Assembly (NCBI GenBank): GCA_965242965.1
Contig: OZ251518.1
Location: 320,001 to 384,000 of the forward strand
Length of the DNA: 64,000 nt
Source: Candidatus Poribacteria bacterium
GTDB lineage: Bacteria; Poribacteria; WGA-4E; WGA-3G
Reading direction: 5' to 3'
Shown: positions 5,829 through 12,830 of the stretch, one piece after another
How the letters are laid out: every line of letters begins with the position of its first letter
How positions within the stretch are numbered: the first letter of the stretch is position 1
Made by a program: the position numbers and the translations under genes
Notes under the pieces: generated by a model
Databases searched by the model: none
What the model saw: the letters and a program-made list of their open reading frames with translations, nothing else
What the model was told of the DNA's origin: nothing

Positions 5829-7115
5829 ATGGCGCAATCCCCGAACATTCTCTTAATTCTCGCCGATGACCACGGTTATGGCGACTTATCCGTGCATAAC
5901 GGGCCTTCTATTGAGACACCGAACCTTGACAGAATTGCCGATGGAGGCATGCGGTTCACTAAGTTTTATGCCAACTCCTCGGTCTGCTCTCCGAGTCGTG
6001 CTTCCCTCATGACAGGCCGTTTTCCCGACAGGGTAGGCGTGCCGGGGGTGATTCGCACGCATGCGCAAAACAACTGGGGCTACTTTCGACAAGATGCAGT
6101 CACGCTCCCTTCAATGCTCAAACAAAAAGATTACGCCACCGCGCTCATCGGCAAGTGGCACCTTGGGCTTGAAACCGAAAACCATCCGTGTCGAAGAGGG
6201 TTTGACCATTTCCACGGCTTCCTCGGCGATATGATGGACGACTACTACACGCACCTCAGGCACGACAACAACTATATGCGCCGCGACTTTGACACTATTG
6301 TTCCGAGAGGGCACGCCACAGAGCTCTTCACAGAATGGAGTGTGGAATTCCTTCGGGCACAAGCGCAGTCATCGTCGCCGTTTTTCCTTTACCTCGCCTA
6401 TAATGCGCCGCACACCCCCATCCAACCTCCGGAAGAGTGGATAGCGCGCGTCCGTGAACGCGAACCGGATATCTCCCCACAGCGAGCGAAATACATCGCG
6501 CTCGTAGAGCACATGGATGCCGGCATCGGCCGCGTGTTGGATACCCTTGAGGAGACTGGACAGTTATCCAATACCCTCGTCATCTACACCTCTGACAACG
6601 GCGGCGATATGAAGGTCGGTGCGCATAACGGCGAACTGCGTGGGCAAAAGGGTGATATGTATGAGGGCGGCATCCGAGTTCCCGCGTGCGCGATGTGGCC
6701 CGGGCATATCCCCGAAGGACATGTCACAGAACAGGAGGCGATGCTCATGGATGTCTTTCCGACAGCATGCGAAGTGGCCGGTGTGCCGCTCACGCATGAG
6801 ATTGAGGGACGTTCTATCTGGCAAACGCTCCAAGGCGAAAAACAGGACTTCTCCGAACGCGTCCTCTATTGGCTGCGCCGAGAGGGGAATCAACGGTTTC
6901 TGGGGCAATGCCAACGTGCTGTCCGCCTCGGCGATATTAAGTTATTGCATAACAGTCCGTTTGAGCCGTTGGAACTCTATAATCTCGCCACCGATGCGCT
7001 AGAGACAACCAACGTCGCGCGGACAGATGCAGAGCTCTTTAGGGAGATGAGTGGGCTGTTTCAGGCGGAGACACAGAAGGCGGGGAGTGTTCCGTGGCAG
7101 CGGGATGCGTCGTAA
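5829..7115 (+). CDS. Sulfatase (formylglycine-dependent, arylsulfatase-like)
   Basis: PNILLILADD, CSPSRASLMTG, GKWHLG, SDNGG, YEGGIRVP motifs. Confidence 0.93.
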   Translation: MAQSPNILLILADDHGYGDLSVHNGPSIETPNLDRIADGGMRFTKFYANSSVCSPSRASLMTGRFPDRVGVPGVIRTHAQNNWGYFRQDAVTLPSMLKQKDYATALIGKWHLGLETENHPCRRGFDHFHGFLGDMMDDYYTHLRHDNNYMRRDFDTIVPRGHATELFTEWSVEFLRAQAQSSSPFFLYLAYNAPHTPIQPPEEWIARVREREPDISPQRAKYIALVEHMDAGIGRVLDTLEETGQLSNTLVIYTSDNGGDMKVGAHNGELRGQKGDMYEGGIRVPACAMWPGHIPEGHVTEQEAMLMDVFPTACEVAGVPLTHEIEGRSIWQTLQGEKQDFSERVLYWLRREGNQRFLGQCQRAVRLGDIKLLHNSPFEPLELYNLATDALETTNVARTDAELFREMSGLFQAETQKAGSVPWQRDAS

Positions 7116-7198
7116 AAATCAACTGGCATTTTTCGCGGAAATAAGGTATCATAATTGGTATGTTTAATTTTTCGCGGGAAGGGAAGGAGGTGGCAATT

Positions 7199-7894
7199 TT
7201 GTGCAAAGAGACCGGAACGGACGAGACAACGCTAGAACCGAAAACGGCAGCGGAGAACGCCGCTGCCGTTGAACCCGCATCGGCACAGCCAGACGCGTTG
7301 GCTGGAATTCATCAAACTTTGGAGGGGCTGCAGGAACTGTTTGATAAGCAGATCTCCCGTAACCAGAACCAGATGAAGATGTTCGACGCGCTCTATCGCG
7401 AAATGAAGGACTATAAAGAGGGCTTCCTGCTGGAGGCACTTCATAAGCCGATTATCAAGGACCTGCTCAGCGTCTATGATAGTTTCGTGTCGCTGGAATC
7501 GCAACTTGATGGGGTGCTGAACGCCGTGAAAAAGATTCGTCCGAAAGCTGTGGCAGAGGAACTCACACAGTTTCGGCAGAATCTGGAGAACGCGCGCTTT
7601 GAATTGGAAGAAGTGCTATATCGCATGGACGTAACCCCTTATGAGGAGCATCCGGAAACGTTGGACCGGCAGTTGCACAAAACGCTTAAGGTGATTTCGG
7701 CGGATACTCCGGAACAGGATTGGCAGGTGGCGGAGGTTCACAAAACCGGGTTTCATTGGCGAGGGAAAGTGTTTCGCCCGGAAGAGGTGACAATTTTCCG
7801 CTATACGCCGCCCATATCGGAGGATGTGGAGAATTCGCAAGGTCCGCTCGCTGGCGGCGCGCCAAAAACTCCGCCCAAGAGAAGTAAAGAATAA
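7199..7894 (+). CDS. GrpE-like nucleotide exchange factor
   Basis: Long coiled coil then LDRQLHK...VAEVHKTGFHWRGKVFRPEEV, typical of the GrpE beta domain; likely TTG start at 7199 after AGGAGG (ORF track starts at 7160). Confidence 0.75.
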   Translation: MCKETGTDETTLEPKTAAENAAAVEPASAQPDALAGIHQTLEGLQELFDKQISRNQNQMKMFDALYREMKDYKEGFLLEALHKPIIKDLLSVYDSFVSLESQLDGVLNAVKKIRPKAVAEELTQFRQNLENARFELEEVLYRMDVTPYEEHPETLDRQLHKTLKVISADTPEQDWQVAEVHKTGFHWRGKVFRPEEVTIFRYTPPISEDVENSQGPLAGGAPKTPPKRSKE

Positions 7895-7943
7895 GTTACT
7901 CGTAGGCCGCTAGTGCCCACTTCCTACATTATAGGAGGCAATT

Positions 7944-8516
7944 ATGCCAAACCAAGATAAACCGTTGGTGTATTTTTTTGGAAAGAGCAATTTCGGCGAT
8001 GACCAGACTGATTTCATAAAAATCGGTCACACTCGCAACGATCTTTCAATCCGACAAGCCGCCCTTCAGACAGGGAACGAGGCCCGTATATGGGAAATGG
8101 GGGTCATTCCTTTCAATACGGTGGACGAGGCGACCCGAGAAGAAGAGCGGATAAAATATATGTTCGGAGCGTTTCGTGCTCAAGGGGAATGGCTCTATGC
8201 TACCCCTCGGATAATACAATATATTGAGGATTATGCAGTGCAGCACACCGCACTGCTCACCGACGATCCGCCACCGCCGGAAAATACAGCTGGCCCTTCA
8301 TTGGGGAAACAGCTTCGTAGTCGCAGGAAAGATGCAGGAATAAAGGTCGCAGACTTAGCTGAGAAAGTGGATTGTACTCCGGGTTACATCTACTTCATTG
8401 AAAATGATTGCGGCAGACCTGGAAAACGCATCCGTAAGGCATTAGTTGACCTATTCGGTGAATTTGACTGCCCTACCCGCGAACAAGGATCAGATACGGA
8501 GGAAGCAAATGGGTAA
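7944..8516 (+). CDS. T5orf172/GIY-YIG-like nuclease domain fused to XRE-type HTH
   Basis: VYFF...FIKIGHT...R..ALQTGN...E...GEWL, then LGKQLRSRRKDAGIKVADLAEKVDCTPGYIYFIEND; AGGAGG RBS. Confidence 0.75.
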   Translation: MPNQDKPLVYFFGKSNFGDDQTDFIKIGHTRNDLSIRQAALQTGNEARIWEMGVIPFNTVDEATREEERIKYMFGAFRAQGEWLYATPRIIQYIEDYAVQHTALLTDDPPPPENTAGPSLGKQLRSRRKDAGIKVADLAEKVDCTPGYIYFIENDCGRPGKRIRKALVDLFGEFDCPTREQGSDTEEANG

Positions 8517-10080
8517 AGTTGTTGGAATCGATCTGGGAACAACCTTCTCAGCAATTGCGCATGTCAATGAACACGGACAACCGGAGATTATCCCGAACGC
8601 CGAAACCGAACGGATTACGCCATCGGTAATTCTGTTTGAGGATGATCTCGTCACCGTTGGAAAAATCGCTAAGCAGAACGCGAGAGCCGTGCCGGAACAG
8701 ATTGTGGAGTTCGTCAAACGCGAAATGGGAAAATCCAAAGAGGAGTTCTTCCGAACTTTTGATGGCAAAGACTACTCCGCTGAAGAGCTCTCCGCGCTCA
8801 TTTTGACGAAACTCAAGCAAGATGCCGAGGCGTATCTCGGTGAAGAAATCACCGATGCTGTCATCACCGTGCCAGCCTATTTCCATGACGCGGAAAGGGA
8901 TGCAACGCGCAACGCTGGCACAATCGCCGGGTTAAACGTTTTGCAAGTGCTAAACGAACCGACAGCGGCCGCGCTCGCCTACGGCATCGATCAACTCGGC
9001 AGTAATCAGAACGTCTTCGTGTTCGACCTCGGCGGTGGCACCTTTGACGTAACCATCATGAAAGTCTCCGAATCGGCAATCCAGATGATTGCGACAAACG
9101 GGGACCACCGGCTTGGCGGCAAAGACTGGGACGACAAAATCATCAGGCATGTTGCGGAAAACTTCGATCTTGAGCACGATGAAAACCCGTTGGCTGACCT
9201 GCACGCATATCAAGACCTCCAACTGAACGCCATTGGTGCGAAAGAGTCTTTATCCCAGCGGCAAAAGGCGCGCATTATCTGTGGATACAACGGTAAAACA
9301 TCTCGTGTGGAATTAACGCGCGAAACGTTTAGCGAACTCACCGCGGACCTCCTTGAAAAATGCCGTTCGCTGTGCGATGTAGTCCTCGCGGAGGCCAAGA
9401 TGACGTGGGACCAGATCGACACAGTGCTATTGGTAGGTGGTTCAACCCGCATGCCGATGGTGCGGGAGATGATCTCCGAGATTAGCGGAAAAGAGATTAA
9501 CCCGATGGAAGTCAATCCCGATGAAGCAGTCGCGATTGGCGCGGCCCTTCAGGGAACCCTCCGACAGATTTCCGAAGAATCTGCTGCAGAACTCCCGGAT
9601 GCGGTTGTCGATCGGTTCATCGGCGCAGATGGCGAGGCAAAAGTCACGGTTACCGATGGAGCCACGCATAATCTGGGACTCGTGATTCTTAACGCGCAAG
9701 AAGACGAAGTTGTTCACGTCATGATTCCCAAAATGACTACCGTCCCTTGCGAGAGGGCAAATCAGTTTGGAACCGTGCGTGCCAACCAAAGTTCGGCGTT
9801 AATCCGAGTCGTGCAGGGACTTGGGCAAGACCAACAAGAAACCGATGGCACCATATTTGAAGAACACAAATTGGGTGAGTGTATCCTTGAACTGCCTTCT
9901 GGTTTGCCGCGAGGGGCCCGCATTGACGTTACCTACAAATACAATCTGGACCAGACGCTTGAGGTGACAGCCCAGGGACCCGACGGCAGAGTTGCAAAGG
10001 CGACGATTGAGCGGCGAACGCTTGACGTGGAGGCAGTTGCACAGGCCGCCAAAAATTTGCAAACGCTGGAAGTTGAGTAG
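8509..10080 (+). CDS. Hsp70-family chaperone (DnaK-like paralogue lacking the C-terminal lid)
   Basis: ATG 8509 after GGAGG; GIDLGTTFS, TVPAYF, NEPTAAALAYG, FDLGGGTFD, LVGGSTRMP, NPDEAVA; 523 aa. Confidence 0.92.
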   Translation: MGKVVGIDLGTTFSAIAHVNEHGQPEIIPNAETERITPSVILFEDDLVTVGKIAKQNARAVPEQIVEFVKREMGKSKEEFFRTFDGKDYSAEELSALILTKLKQDAEAYLGEEITDAVITVPAYFHDAERDATRNAGTIAGLNVLQVLNEPTAAALAYGIDQLGSNQNVFVFDLGGGTFDVTIMKVSESAIQMIATNGDHRLGGKDWDDKIIRHVAENFDLEHDENPLADLHAYQDLQLNAIGAKESLSQRQKARIICGYNGKTSRVELTRETFSELTADLLEKCRSLCDVVLAEAKMTWDQIDTVLLVGGSTRMPMVREMISEISGKEINPMEVNPDEAVAIGAALQGTLRQISEESAAELPDAVVDRFIGADGEAKVTVTDGATHNLGLVILNAQEDEVVHVMIPKMTTVPCERANQFGTVRANQSSALIRVVQGLGQDQQETDGTIFEEHKLGECILELPSGLPRGARIDVTYKYNLDQTLEVTAQGPDGRVAKATIERRTLDVEAVAQAAKNLQTLEVE

Positions 10081-10151
10081 GTAACCAGCGATTCTTCGTG
10101 AGAGCGGATTGCTATATCCGCCTATAGATTTCATTGATTAAGGAGTGACGT

Positions 10152-11624
10152 ATGCCCAACCGCGACGCATTCATTGCAATTATCGACACCTTCAAGGCTG
10201 CCTCACCGGCAATTACAAAGGAACAGCGTATCGGCCTCCTCCGGCAAGCGACACAGCAGTACGGCCTGTCCTTTGAGGATGCTGAACAACTGCTGAAATC
10301 TTCCGGCTTAGTCGTCGGCGATGTCGTGAACTACTTTGAGGTGCTGGAACTTTCTATTGAGGAACTCCAGAACCAAACCGAGGCGGAGATAGCAACGCGC
10401 GTCGATACCGCCTACCACAAACTCTATCGCGCGTCATTGATTGCCGGTGTCCGCCCTGGCGAAGCGGAGCGGCGGACTACCCTGAATGAGGCACGGAAGA
10501 TTCTGAAAGACCGCGAGAAGCGGCGCGAACACATCGCAACACTCCAACCTGAAAGAGAATTAACTCCGATGCCTGACGAGAGAATACCCAGGCGCGAGAA
10601 CCCCTCACCTAGAGGCCCGAAAAGCTACTCCGTTGAGCAGAAGTTGGATGCGATTCTTCTTGTTATTGAGAAGGGTTATTCCGGTGCAGATGCCGCGAGA
10701 ACATTGGATCCGCCTGCTACCTCATCCACGGTCAACACTTGGGTTCGTCAGTTCACGGGCAGATACCGTTCAGGAGACCCGATGCCGGCAGACCGGATTC
10801 CTGCTTGGGTTGAGGAAGCGAGACAACTTCACCGGCAGAAATCGGGACAGGGAGATTCCTCCCACAGGGCCTCTGTGCCTCCCGGCATGGTCCTTATCCC
10901 CGCCGGCGATTTTCTGATGGGGAGCTACGATGGAGAAGACGACGAACAGCCGGTGCACACCGTCTATGTTGATGCGTTCTACATGGACACATGCCAAGTG
11001 ACGAATGCACAGTATAAGGTGTTCGTGGATGCAAACCCGCAGTGGCAGCAAGACAACATCCCGGATAAATACCACGATCTAGCAGCCTACCTTGAGCACT
11101 GGAGCGGCAACAGTTATCCGAGTGGGAAAGGCAACCATCCGGTGGTTAATGTGAGTTGGTATGCGGCGATGGCGTATGCGGAGTGGGCCGGCAAACGGCT
11201 GCCGACAGAGGCAGAGTGGGAGAAGGCGGCGCGCGGCGGCTTGGTGGGCAAGGAATACCCGTGGGGCGACACTATTGATACCACCAAGGCAAATTACGAT
11301 CTCAATGTTGGCGATACCACGCCGGTTGGGAGTTATGCCCCGAACGGATATGGTCTGTATGACATGGCAGGAAACGTGTGGGAGTGGTGTATTGATGCAC
11401 ATGATATCTATCCGCTTCCGGCGCGTCGGAATCCAGTGGCGGACTGGGCTGACAACGACTTCGCCCATGTTCAGCCCTACATCTTGCACGTGTTGCGCGG
11501 CGGCTCGTGGTACGGCGACGCGCAAGCACTGCGCGTCGCCGATCGCGGCTTCGATACGCCGGCGTATGCGGCGTATGCGTGCGACGAAGGCGGTTTTCGT
11601 TGTGCGAGGGACATAACGCCTTGA
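10152..11624 (+). CDS. J-like domain + HTH + FGE-sulfatase (SUMF1-like) domain protein
   Basis: NYFEVL...AYHKL...LNEARKILKDREKR (J-like, no HPD); YSVEQKLDAI...TVNTWVRQ (HTH); RLPTEAEWEKAARG, NGYGLYDMAGNVWEW, GFRC (FGE). Confidence 0.8.
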   Translation: MPNRDAFIAIIDTFKAASPAITKEQRIGLLRQATQQYGLSFEDAEQLLKSSGLVVGDVVNYFEVLELSIEELQNQTEAEIATRVDTAYHKLYRASLIAGVRPGEAERRTTLNEARKILKDREKRREHIATLQPERELTPMPDERIPRRENPSPRGPKSYSVEQKLDAILLVIEKGYSGADAARTLDPPATSSTVNTWVRQFTGRYRSGDPMPADRIPAWVEEARQLHRQKSGQGDSSHRASVPPGMVLIPAGDFLMGSYDGEDDEQPVHTVYVDAFYMDTCQVTNAQYKVFVDANPQWQQDNIPDKYHDLAAYLEHWSGNSYPSGKGNHPVVNVSWYAAMAYAEWAGKRLPTEAEWEKAARGGLVGKEYPWGDTIDTTKANYDLNVGDTTPVGSYAPNGYGLYDMAGNVWEWCIDAHDIYPLPARRNPVADWADNDFAHVQPYILHVLRGGSWYGDAQALRVADRGFDTPAYAAYACDEGGFRCARDITP

Positions 11625-11662: not shown

Positions 11663-11691
11663 TTGACAAACGAGTTTTCTCATGGTATCAT
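11663..11691 (+). promoter_or_regulatory. sigma70-like promoter of the thermonuclease gene
   Basis: TTGACA-17 nt-TATCAT with TG extension. Confidence 0.65.
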
Positions 11692-11831
11692 TTACTGAGA
11701 ACGTTTGCTTGCGTGTCAATTGCGATGGTTCGTGAACGGCCGCAATCGATGCGCGTCACTCGGCCTGTCGCTGCCCAATACGAGGATTCCAATCGTTAGT
11801 TATGAGATGTCTCTGCGAGAGGAGTGAAAAA

Positions 11832-12227
11832 ATGCAACAGTTTGCTCCAACACAAAACTTTGTCGTGACGAAAGTCATTGATGGGGATACGCTGGAAATT
11901 AGTCCTGAAATCCCCCTGCACGTTGCGCTCCAGCCGGCTGTAGAGAAATTAAGGGAAGTGCGTTATGCTGGCACTTCACCGGCATGGATGGTGAGCCCGC
12001 GGCCGCTCAAGCGGGTGCGTTTAGCGCATATAAACACCCCGGAACTCGGCACTCCTCGCGGAGACCGAGCTGCTCTCTATCTGAAGCATCTTTTAGAGGG
12101 AAAACGCGTGACGTTAAGACCCCTCGGTGTTTCCTATGACCGCGTTGTCGCCGACGTATGGCGATATCCCGACAACGTTTCTGTCAATGCAGCGATGCTT
12201 TATAAAGGCTATGCGAAACGCGCGTAG
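11832..12227 (+). CDS. Thermonuclease (SNase-like) family protein
   Basis: VTKVIDGDTL, VRLAHINTPE, YDRVVADV, SVNAAMLYKGYA; AGGAG RBS before ATG 11832. Confidence 0.85.
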   Translation: MQQFAPTQNFVVTKVIDGDTLEISPEIPLHVALQPAVEKLREVRYAGTSPAWMVSPRPLKRVRLAHINTPELGTPRGDRAALYLKHLLEGKRVTLRPLGVSYDRVVADVWRYPDNVSVNAAMLYKGYAKRA

Positions 12228-12309
12228 ACTTCGCTTAACAAAAATGCCGAGCAAATTTGACTTTTTTCTCAAAATAGTGTATCATTTTACCTATGATTGA
12301 TAACTAAGG

Positions 12310-12830
12310 TGAGGGTGTCTCATATCTCGCTCAATGTCGCGGGGACAGGCCCCCGCGCTACGATGAAAAAAACGCGGCCTCTTCACGTAGGGCGAGGGCC
12401 TGTCCCTCGCCATGCTCCGGTCTGCGCAGCAACCATCTGTCGGCTCTGGGCTGCGGACGTTTTCCGCAAAGGTTGAGAGATCGCGGGGGACAGGCCCCCG
12501 CGTTACGATGACAAAAAACGCCTCTCCTTCACGTAGGGCGAGGGCCTGTCCCTCGCCATGCTGCGATCGCGGGGGACAGGCCCCCGCGCTACGGTGAAAA
12601 TAACGCAGCTCTTTCACCGTAGCGCGGGGGCCCTCGGATGCCATACGCGCATCCGAGAGGGTTTCCCTCGCCATGCTGCGATCGCGGGGGACAAGCCCCC
12701 GCGCTACGGGAAAAAACGGCATCCCTTTCACCGTAGGGCGAGGGCCCTCGCAGGTTTCCACACGCCCATGCGTTTGGCTGGCAGACCGCATCACCCCTGT
12801 AGGGCAGGATCGCCCGATCCCAAACTACAG
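12310..12830. repeat. Mosaic REP-like palindrome cluster
   Basis: Repeated GTAGGGCGAGGGCCTGTCCCTCGCC and CGCGGGGGACAGGCCCCCGCGCTAC; begins with TGAGGGTGTCTCATATC. Confidence 0.85.

Follow-up and report, generated by a model that had tools for sequence, protein, structure and literature searches.

A candidate accessory Hsp70 system in Poribacteria with a lid-less Hsp70, a divergent GrpE and J-like adaptors lacking HPD

A 64,000-nucleotide stretch from a Candidatus Poribacteria bacterium (GenBank assembly GCA_965242965.1, contig OZ251518.1, positions 320,001 to 384,000; hereafter the window) carries a cluster in which a divergent GrpE-like gene, a lid-less Hsp70 gene and the gene of a J-like adaptor follow one another on the forward strand. 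We give an even chance to the reading that this cluster represents a conserved accessory Hsp70 system in reduced form, made up of a lid-less Hsp70, a divergent GrpE and a family of J-like adaptors. The anatomy itself, and its reading as a dedicated chaperone, we hold with high confidence, while a function in conflict with phages or other invaders is put forward tentatively and by analogy, on the grounds that diverged adaptors form arrays, that the system is patchily distributed and that variant loci encode Hsp70-vWA and caspase-FGE proteins. Four open reading frames (ORFs) occupy the plus strand of the region at 7160-7894, 7944-8516, 8446-10080 (ATG at 8509) and 10152-11624, separated in that order by a 49-nt gap, an 8-nt overlap (8509-8516) and a 71-nt gap; thus the four tightly spaced, co-oriented genes and the overlap into the Hsp70 start, pointed out in an earlier note made from the letters alone, are real. 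Contigs of public sequencing runs from two studies span the junctions on either side of the second gene's segment (X1 records, 7393-8293 and 8379-9417; X6, 7855-8882), which shows that the arrangement does not stem from faulty assembly. Candidatus Poribacteria, which are sponge symbionts, are named in the record titles of related contigs; in what follows, G000 is the window's own genome and L-numbers are related loci.

The Hsp70 (8509..10080, +; 523 aa) begins with MGKVVGIDLG and comprises a nucleotide-binding domain, a VTVTD linker and a beta substrate-binding domain. Its Pfam HSP70 match (PF00012; 6.2e-122, 408 bits) spans profile positions 1-487 of 599, thus the helical lid is absent, and it aligns with solved DnaK chains only to about residue 500. 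The length, the ATPase motifs, the missing lid and the non-standard linker, KVTVTDG in full, had all been read correctly in the earlier note. The motifs GIDLGTT, KRE, NEPTAAA, DLGGGTFDV and LVGGSTRMP are invariant in 35 members of the clade. Against the NCBIfam equivalog models the protein falls far short of housekeeping DnaK (417 bits vs 648 and 403 vs 822; NF001413, TIGR02350) and of HscA (338 bits vs 708; TIGR01991), and no NCBIfam HscC-type model matched it. Its identity is 37% with the DnaK of its own genome and 91% with the closest relative listed, all motifs being kept; near-identical Hsp70s (97-98%) exist in other assemblies, and relatives are publicly named only "hypothetical protein" or "Hsp70 family protein". 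In a quick maximum-likelihood tree of 46 sequences (35 from the clade, six poribacterial or verrucomicrobial DnaKs, two additional Hsp70s, two proteins on long branches and one Hsp70-vWA) the lid-less Hsp70s were monophyletic across two phyla (SH-aLRT 97) and separate from the six DnaKs, and their sister was the Hsp70-vWA paralogue (SH-aLRT 99). The separate canonical DnaK that the earlier note had asked for was found at G000:C1:543606-545393 (887 bits, 648-aa frame), together with a canonical J-domain gene at C1:5245372-5245560, beside which an ORF is weakly matched (2.9e-7) by a hidden Markov model (HMM) built from the window's GrpE-like protein. Judged by sequence, the window Hsp70 is a private, non-housekeeping chaperone in a clade of its own, as had been supposed, and the housekeeping set lies elsewhere in the genome. 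Two other proteins of this genome carry divergent Hsp70 domains: one of 1231 aa at G000:C1:782490-786182 (L003:370-4062, minus strand), with weak EVE-like and HEAT matches, and one of 936 aa at G000:C1:2518345-2521152 (L004:505-3312, minus strand), with an Ig-like match.

The three chaperone-type genes are linked well beyond the window. A scan with the Hsp70 gave a set of 71 loci from Poribacteria (68-91% identity), Verrucomicrobiota/Chthoniobacterales (54-59%) and a few others, in which features were counted with HMMs built from the window proteins on stop-to-stop frames of at least 60 aa, fragments included. In 51 of these loci the clade Hsp70 has a GrpE-like ORF upstream of it; ORFs with the adaptor N-terminal (J-like) domain lie downstream in 59, one to nine in each and 231 altogether, often as tandem arrays; FGE-domain ORFs occur in 65. 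In 13-kb regions of 12 relatives the order is always GrpE, then Hsp70, then at least one adaptor paralogue, usually with a sulfatase upstream. The GrpE-like protein (7160..7894, +; 244 aa, starting at 7160 or about 7199) is a divergent nucleotide exchange factor by its Pfam GrpE match (PF01025; 1.5e-12, 48 bits vs a cut-off of 25.8; residues 51-212), and it fails the housekeeping GrpE equivalogs of NCBIfam with at most 21.8 bits vs cut-offs of at least 164 (best-scoring model, 21.8 vs 176). Orthologues with 57-82% identity were found in 12 of 40 relatives searched. Its C-terminal tail from about 7801 is not ancestral, while the Pfam domain is intact and lies entirely before the insertion point described below. 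An ankyrin-repeat protein replaces the GrpE-like gene in some poribacterial loci. The earlier note had spoken of a private triad and had made its case depend on separation from housekeeping DnaK and on linkage to the GrpE, J-like and nuclease genes: no clustering with DnaK was seen and the linkage of GrpE and J-like genes holds, whereas that of the nuclease gene does not, and, since the J-like domain lacks HPD, the word triad applies by analogy only.

The fourth gene (10152-11624, +) encodes the adaptor, a protein of 490 aa. Its N-terminal 135 residues, aligned over 84 sequences (alignment A2), are the conserved part of a paralogous adaptor family. Residues 1-55 (10152..10316, +) form a three-helix subdomain, conserved in the alignment and modelled by AlphaFold2 with pLDDT of about 88-95, and many database relatives begin directly with the J-like part, thus residues 1-55 are a separable module. 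The J-like domain occupies residues 59-131 (10326..10544, +). PF00226 did not match the adaptor protein, and a genome scan with PF00226 finds four other places; the domain was recognised by profile and structure search. A profile of the J-like part matched only three PDB sequences, all of them J domains (E 0.4-0.8), and with the AlphaFold2 model of the region (pLDDT 89.6) the four best Foldseek matches were again J domains (T. thermophilus DnaJ, human Tid1), at a probability of 1.00 but E of 0.09-0.18, with a root-mean-square deviation of 2.3-3.4 over 71-76 columns. On the strength of these matches residues 59-131 are modelled as a four-helix J fold without HPD. Scores in a protein atlas (at most 0.83, with DnaJ and DjlA clusters at 0.76-0.79) serve as leads only. 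The profile of the J-like family matched 133 of 1.84 billion cluster representatives; among 80 longer relatives Pfam counts were FGE-sulfatase 21, ankyrin 11, WD40 3, DnaJ 3, PG_binding_1 3 and HEAT 2. In the loci the module is fused to FGE domains in most cases, and otherwise to WD40 propellers, ankyrin repeats or Ig-like regions. G000 holds only one J-like ORF. The J-like domain stands right at the N-terminal end, with no signal peptide in front of it.

The HPD motif is regarded as essential to the action of J domains on Hsp70. It was present in none of the 228 N-terminal segments examined, and the loop where it would sit reads SLxAGGRPRxDG (motif S-L-x-A-G-G-R-P). The Hsp70 side differs as well: the third residue before NEPTAA, which we take to be the equivalent of the DnaK Arg167 that contacts the Asp of HPD, is Gln in 33, His in one and Asn in one of 35 clade Hsp70s, and Arg in all 14 other Hsp70s (6 DnaK, 2 Hsp70b, 6 Hsp70-vWA). 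Complex predictions of Hsp70, J-like domain and ATP scored 0.47, 0.00 and 0.00 in successive runs with controls that were not folded, and count neither way. In Verrucomicrobiota the gene after the Hsp70 starts NYYERLGL...KKLPLKNQPSNP...LLNPxxR and has a J-like look, again without HPD; a PDB profile search with the verrucomicrobial N-termini gave no convincing J match. After the J-like part, at residues of about 107-159, the verrucomicrobial adaptors of L093-L108 carry a helical motif, LTxxEExxLxxxGxxLGL, that resembles the poribacterial N-terminal module in permuted order and whose profile weakly matches Tic110 repeats (E 0.0075). In the window, a linker with a stretch resembling HTH_Tnp_1 follows the J-like domain (residues 141-235; 10572..10856, +; 22.7 bits, below the Pfam cut-off of 24.1), modelled with low confidence (pLDDT 45-68). 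The stretch is unique to this genome, with no relative elsewhere in it or in the 71 loci, L039 included, so that the helix-turn-helix (HTH) part listed for the fourth protein in the earlier note is private to this genome; the idea that it is an insertion sequence remnant was rejected, as it has no relative elsewhere in the genome.

The C-terminal domain of the adaptor (10881..11609, +; residues 244-486) has the FGE-sulfatase, C-type-lectin-like fold foreseen in the earlier note (Pfam 9.2e-65, 219 bits). It is 32-36% identical to solved FGEs, and Foldseek places it with S. coelicolor FGE at E 1.7e-19; the fold matches include 1y4j, a human FGE paralogue. The catalytic cysteine pair is C336 and C341 in human numbering, according to PDB titles. 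The CxxxxC of S. coelicolor and T. curvata FGE (CHDSYC) aligns to Y-GDA--QA, deletion included, and across 69 aligned paralogues Cys is outside the five commonest residues at all cysteine-pair columns, so that the adaptor domain is predicted to be catalytically dead. Paralogue variability is concentrated in loops, among them the segment where FGE has its cysteines. G000 contains 34 FGE-domain frames, only one of which has the motif CSLSFCYRYR; that frame (1432791-1434083), the first of five FGE-domain frames clustered at G000:C1:1432791-1443007, is likely, by its motif, the genome's true FGE.

The second gene (7944..8516, +; 190 aa) does not belong to this set. Alignment with the closest relative, L039, delimits a lineage-specific insert of roughly 700 nt (7801..8500, +; limits approximate) that has replaced about 80 nt coding for the ancestral 3' tail of GrpE. 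In L039 the GrpE ends ...PDTEGENETDG* and overlaps the Hsp70 start, while in the window the inserted ORF ends ...GSDTEEANG*; the 8-nt overlap thus goes back to the former GrpE/Hsp70 junction, which the inserted frame now reads. The ribosome-binding region of the Hsp70 and its overlap with the upstream stop are preserved relative to L039. The 190-aa protein contains an HTH_31 domain (Pfam 1.1e-6) that resembles the repressor-type HTH of phages in PHROGs, and its matches to MUG113 (20.2 vs a cut-off of 22.3) and T5orf172 (18.1 vs 20), which we take to belong to the GIY-YIG clan, stay just below threshold; a full-length homologue scores 24.4 with MUG113. The gene is single-copy in G000, and homologues (52-68% identity) lie in unrelated places in 40 of 176 genomes of the phylum, most frames being about 300 aa long and some interrupted by stops or fragmentary, so that the window copy is truncated after its HTH. 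Neither its T5orf172-like domain nor its HTH occurs in any of the 71 related loci, and the gene is missing from all 12 relatives' loci with a GrpE-like orthologue. An insertion-free allele was not seen in four public runs and no contig joined across the insertion, although contigs cannot show absence. By these comparisons the gene is of mobile type, truncated and inserted into the GrpE tail, and very probably a passenger and not a system component; it should not be used for defining the system, which corrects the logic of the annotation, and the embedded nuclease-regulator under Hsp70 control, proposed at first sight, is not borne out. Full-length T5orf172-HTH homologues (L111, L113, L122) often adjoin a conserved frame beginning ...RFGTRGPVNPEQHY... 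with a P-loop, APRQTGKTTFF, which suggests a recurrent gene pair.

The distribution of the system is patchy. Of 176 genomes of the phylum, 61 contain the J-like domain, each with 1-13 matches, and the domain is concentrated in two genera (34/40 and 22/65). A genome of the same genus, G002, is without the cassette: its sulfatase is directly followed by the GH95 gene, and only a 31-aa GrpE remnant is left. Variant poribacterial loci show other partners. In L083 and L078 a second Hsp70, likewise lid-less, with a vWA domain fused at its C-terminus and the DnaK-type Arg kept, stands just upstream of GrpE and the clade Hsp70 (L083:6956-9049, L078:6647-8842); in L079 and L090 a caspase-PEGA-FGE protein takes the place of Hsp70-vWA upstream. 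Caspase-PEGA-FGE or caspase-CARDB proteins beside variant modules lie at L079:7245-9152, L090:7416-9251, L083:3610-6513 and L082:464-3385, and further neighbours are giant WD40 proteins, an LRR metallopeptidase and Sel1 and TPR proteins. In Verrucomicrobiota a gene for a CysG/HemD-type enzyme is conserved upstream, which is probably no more than synteny. Diversification of the adaptors by diversity-generating retroelements (DGRs) was considered and rejected, as no template/variable repeat pair of that type was found in the L043 and L047 arrays or the window, where reverse transcriptase was not searched for; repeats there are mostly at paralogue level (60-78%), with two segments of 89% and 93% between adjacent paralogues.

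Chaperone-based NTP-dependent conflict systems, with FGS domains always C-terminal, and MoxR-vWA ternary systems are treated in the portions of Kaur et al. 2020 (PMC7159879) used here; in those portions the only setting for HSP70, GrpE and DnaJ-fused components is the GAP1-N2 GTPase systems, for which actinobacteria and firmicutes are named. According to an excerpt of a 2026 preprint of the same group, HSP70-like NTPase domains can replace STAND NTPases. With the systems so described the present one shares a chaperone core that is driven by ATP and has a co-chaperone, variable proteins with a strictly C-terminal FGS (FGE-fold) domain, superstructure-forming WD40, ankyrin or TPR repeats, vWA and caspase domains in its variant loci, and a patchy distribution with lineage-specific expansion. 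It departs from them, as far as those portions go, in that its core is Hsp70 and GrpE alone, its coupling module is an HPD-less J-like domain instead of vWA or EAD, and its phyla are Poribacteria and Verrucomicrobiota instead of those named for the HSP70 theme; unlike with DGR-diversified FGS proteins, no DGR-type repeat was seen in the two arrays analysed. Among the nine window proteins scanned with Pfam there was no MoxR, STAND or GAP1-N2 GTPase, the loci not having been scanned systematically for GTPases, and vWA appears in the variant loci only as the fusion to the second Hsp70, with no MoxR-vWA pair. By analogy, the module may be an Hsp70-centred variant of chaperone-based conflict systems. 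Our literature search found no description of it, although related loci may be listed among the source data of Kaur et al. 2020 (PMC7159879).

Four better-known machineries frame the comparison further. With canonical DnaK-DnaJ-GrpE the system has in common the three folds, the ATPase motifs and the GrpE Pfam domain, and it differs in having no helical lid, a VTVTD linker, Gln for Arg, no HPD and no CIRCE in the window; as first reported, CIRCE gave no match there with up to three mismatches to its consensus, and hrcA was not searched for. E. coli HscC (YbeW) works with dedicated J-proteins, DjlB and DjlC, that keep HPD, and no dedicated GrpE has been described for it. Like HscC, the window Hsp70 would be a second, specialised Hsp70 with its own J-type partners instead of DnaJ; unlike HscC, it is accompanied by adaptor arrays with FGE, WD40 or ankyrin domains. 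pFGE/SUMF2 is an inactive human paralogue of FGE without the catalytic cysteines. The adaptor domain shares the fold of FGE and pFGE and the cysteine loss of pFGE, whereas it is fused to a J-like domain, cytoplasmic and multiplied into diverged tandem paralogues. In clathrin uncoating by auxilin and Hsc70, a J-type adaptor binds a specific assembly and recruits Hsp70 to it. The poribacterial adaptor may be likened to auxilin in bringing Hsp70 to a bound assembly, an analogy only, as auxilin is eukaryotic, has a canonical J domain with HPD and is related in sequence by the J fold alone.

From this anatomy a mechanism can be proposed. The J-like domain would dock the adaptor on the private Hsp70 through an interface changed on both sides (HPD to SLxAGGRP, Arg to Gln), and the C-terminal domain of the adaptor, be it FGE fold, WD40, ankyrin or Ig-like, would capture a specific macromolecule. 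The Hsp70, recycled by its own GrpE, might then hold, unfold or disassemble the target, or else gate the adaptor, and being lid-less it may accept bulky or folded clients. In its boldest form, which we regard as rather doubtful, this would be an undescribed Hsp70-centred immune-like system in which a germline-encoded repertoire of binders (dead-FGE, WD40, ankyrin), each with an HPD-less J-like domain that has co-evolved with the private Hsp70, recruits an Hsp70/GrpE motor to unfold, take apart or sequester invader proteins or assemblies; the chaperone would then be the effector arm of defence, with no need of a nuclease or toxin. The conflict or anti-phage role first suggested for the operon is plausible in view of the variant loci with vWA and caspase domains, while the nuclease part of that suggestion is contradicted.

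A number of observations speak against a conserved conflict system of this kind. A GrpE-like gene is absent upstream in 20 of the 71 loci, where the sulfatase abuts the Hsp70 or another gene is found, and at L040:8866-9765 an ankyrin-repeat protein of 299 aa occupies its place upstream of a clade Hsp70. The link between verrucomicrobial and poribacterial J-like domains is weak (hhalign E 0.005, probability 7%), and the tree is a quick maximum-likelihood search, not a careful one. Most loci, the window's included, are without a conserved enzymatic effector. The window flanks consist of carbohydrate-degradation genes without defence genes by Pfam, and in PADLOC-DB 2.0 the GrpE-like protein and the adaptor matched no family and the Hsp70 only PDC-M61B, weakly (1e-4). 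Stimulation of the Hsp70 ATPase by a J-like domain without HPD is hypothetical, and system function is inferred from sequence and models throughout.

The main rival to the conflict reading is sulfatase-specific chaperoning, in which dead FGE domains would bind the CxPxR region of nascent sulfatases and hand them over to the private Hsp70 via the J-like domain; sulfatases would be kept unfolded for the true FGE or for export, and the many paralogues would match the many sulfatases of sulfatase-rich phyla. FGE acts on unfolded sulfatase, the fold search with the adaptor domain is headed by solved true FGEs of 32-36% identity, and the gene immediately before the operon, on the same strand, encodes a Cys-type sulfatase (5829..7115, +; Pfam Sulfatase 2.5e-65), as it does in most poribacterial loci; the latter two points count against the conflict reading too. 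The sulfatase is a syntenic neighbour in Poribacteria whose membership in the system is not shown: none stands beside the module in verrucomicrobial or variant poribacterial loci (BLAST E 1e-4), and G002 retains its sulfatase without the cassette. WD40, ankyrin and Ig-like regions are further fusion partners of the J-like module, the system occurs in only 61 of the phylum's 176 genomes, variability is among the highest in the former-cysteine segment, which belongs to the substrate site of FGE, and vWA and caspase partners have no obvious place in sulfatase maturation. On balance we consider this explanation improbable.

Decay of the operon itself is another unlikely explanation: the array would have shrunk to one adaptor with a foreign linker stretch, the GrpE tail would have been split by a mobile-type gene, and the operon may no longer work. 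The single J-like ORF in this genome vs up to 13 matches in relatives, the insertion of about 700 nt with the unique linker insert, and the loss of the whole cassette in the same-genus genome all fit such a remnant. However, the four frames are all open, GrpE residues 51-212 lie entirely ahead of the insertion point, the Hsp70 keeps all its motifs at 91% identity to the closest relative listed and has near-identical copies in other assemblies, and its ribosome-binding region and upstream-stop overlap are preserved.

Still less probable is a role in host interaction, with eukaryote-like repeat or lectin-fold adaptors acting on molecules of the sponge host after being folded or delivered by the private Hsp70. 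Ankyrin, WD40, LRR, TPR and Sel1 proteins in and around the loci would suit it, and the best DNA-run matches to the window include sponge metagenomes. Such repeat proteins are reported to be abundant in Poribacteria (Kamke 2014, PMC3909097), and the abundance of ankyrin and WD40 proteins in sponge symbionts, for which other reasons have been proposed there, also tells against a conflict role. However, the J-like domain follows no signal peptide, no secretion genes were seen beside the core, and related modules occur in verrucomicrobial (Chthoniobacterales) assemblies with titles that do not mention sponges, whose habitat was not examined. Finally, the four-gene model of the earlier note, with a ligand-sensing FGE fold and an Hsp70 that controls a GIY-YIG-type nuclease-regulator, is most improbable: the T5orf172/HTH gene is indeed present, co-oriented, overlapping the Hsp70 start and provided with T5orf172/MUG113-like and HTH features, but it is confined to the window among the related loci, forms an insertion when compared with the closest relative, is truncated in comparison with its family and stays below both Pfam nuclease cut-offs, and its overlap is inherited from the GrpE/Hsp70 junction.

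Some features around the operon may be recorded here. Downstream lies a small SNase-like nuclease gene (11802..12227, +; Pfam SNase 1.3e-6, PHROG endonuclease 2.7e-14), with a promoter-like site at 11663-11691 that matches 11 of 12 positions; SNase-like genes occur in five of the 71 loci, inside the arrays, and are thus occasional companions. Between it and the GH95 gene, a 62-nt repeat with a GC-rich palindromic core, GCGGGGGACAGGCCCCCGC, is present in four copies at 12308-12750, along with two further short repeat families, and all of these look like REP- or MITE-type elements. In all four public runs the summed contig depth was about ten-fold higher at 11032-11215, the conserved core of the FGE domain, probably due to the recruitment of contigs from many paralogues to this core. 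No RNA run was among the public sequencing runs listed as carrying the locus.

If the reading as an accessory conflict system is true, Hsp70 would join MoxR and Hsp90-like proteins among the chaperones recruited into bacterial immunity, while the loci would hold natural arrays of diversified FGE-fold binders. Independent of the target, HPD-less J-like adaptors paired with an Hsp70 in which the matching Arg is changed would represent a second way of coupling a co-chaperone to Hsp70.

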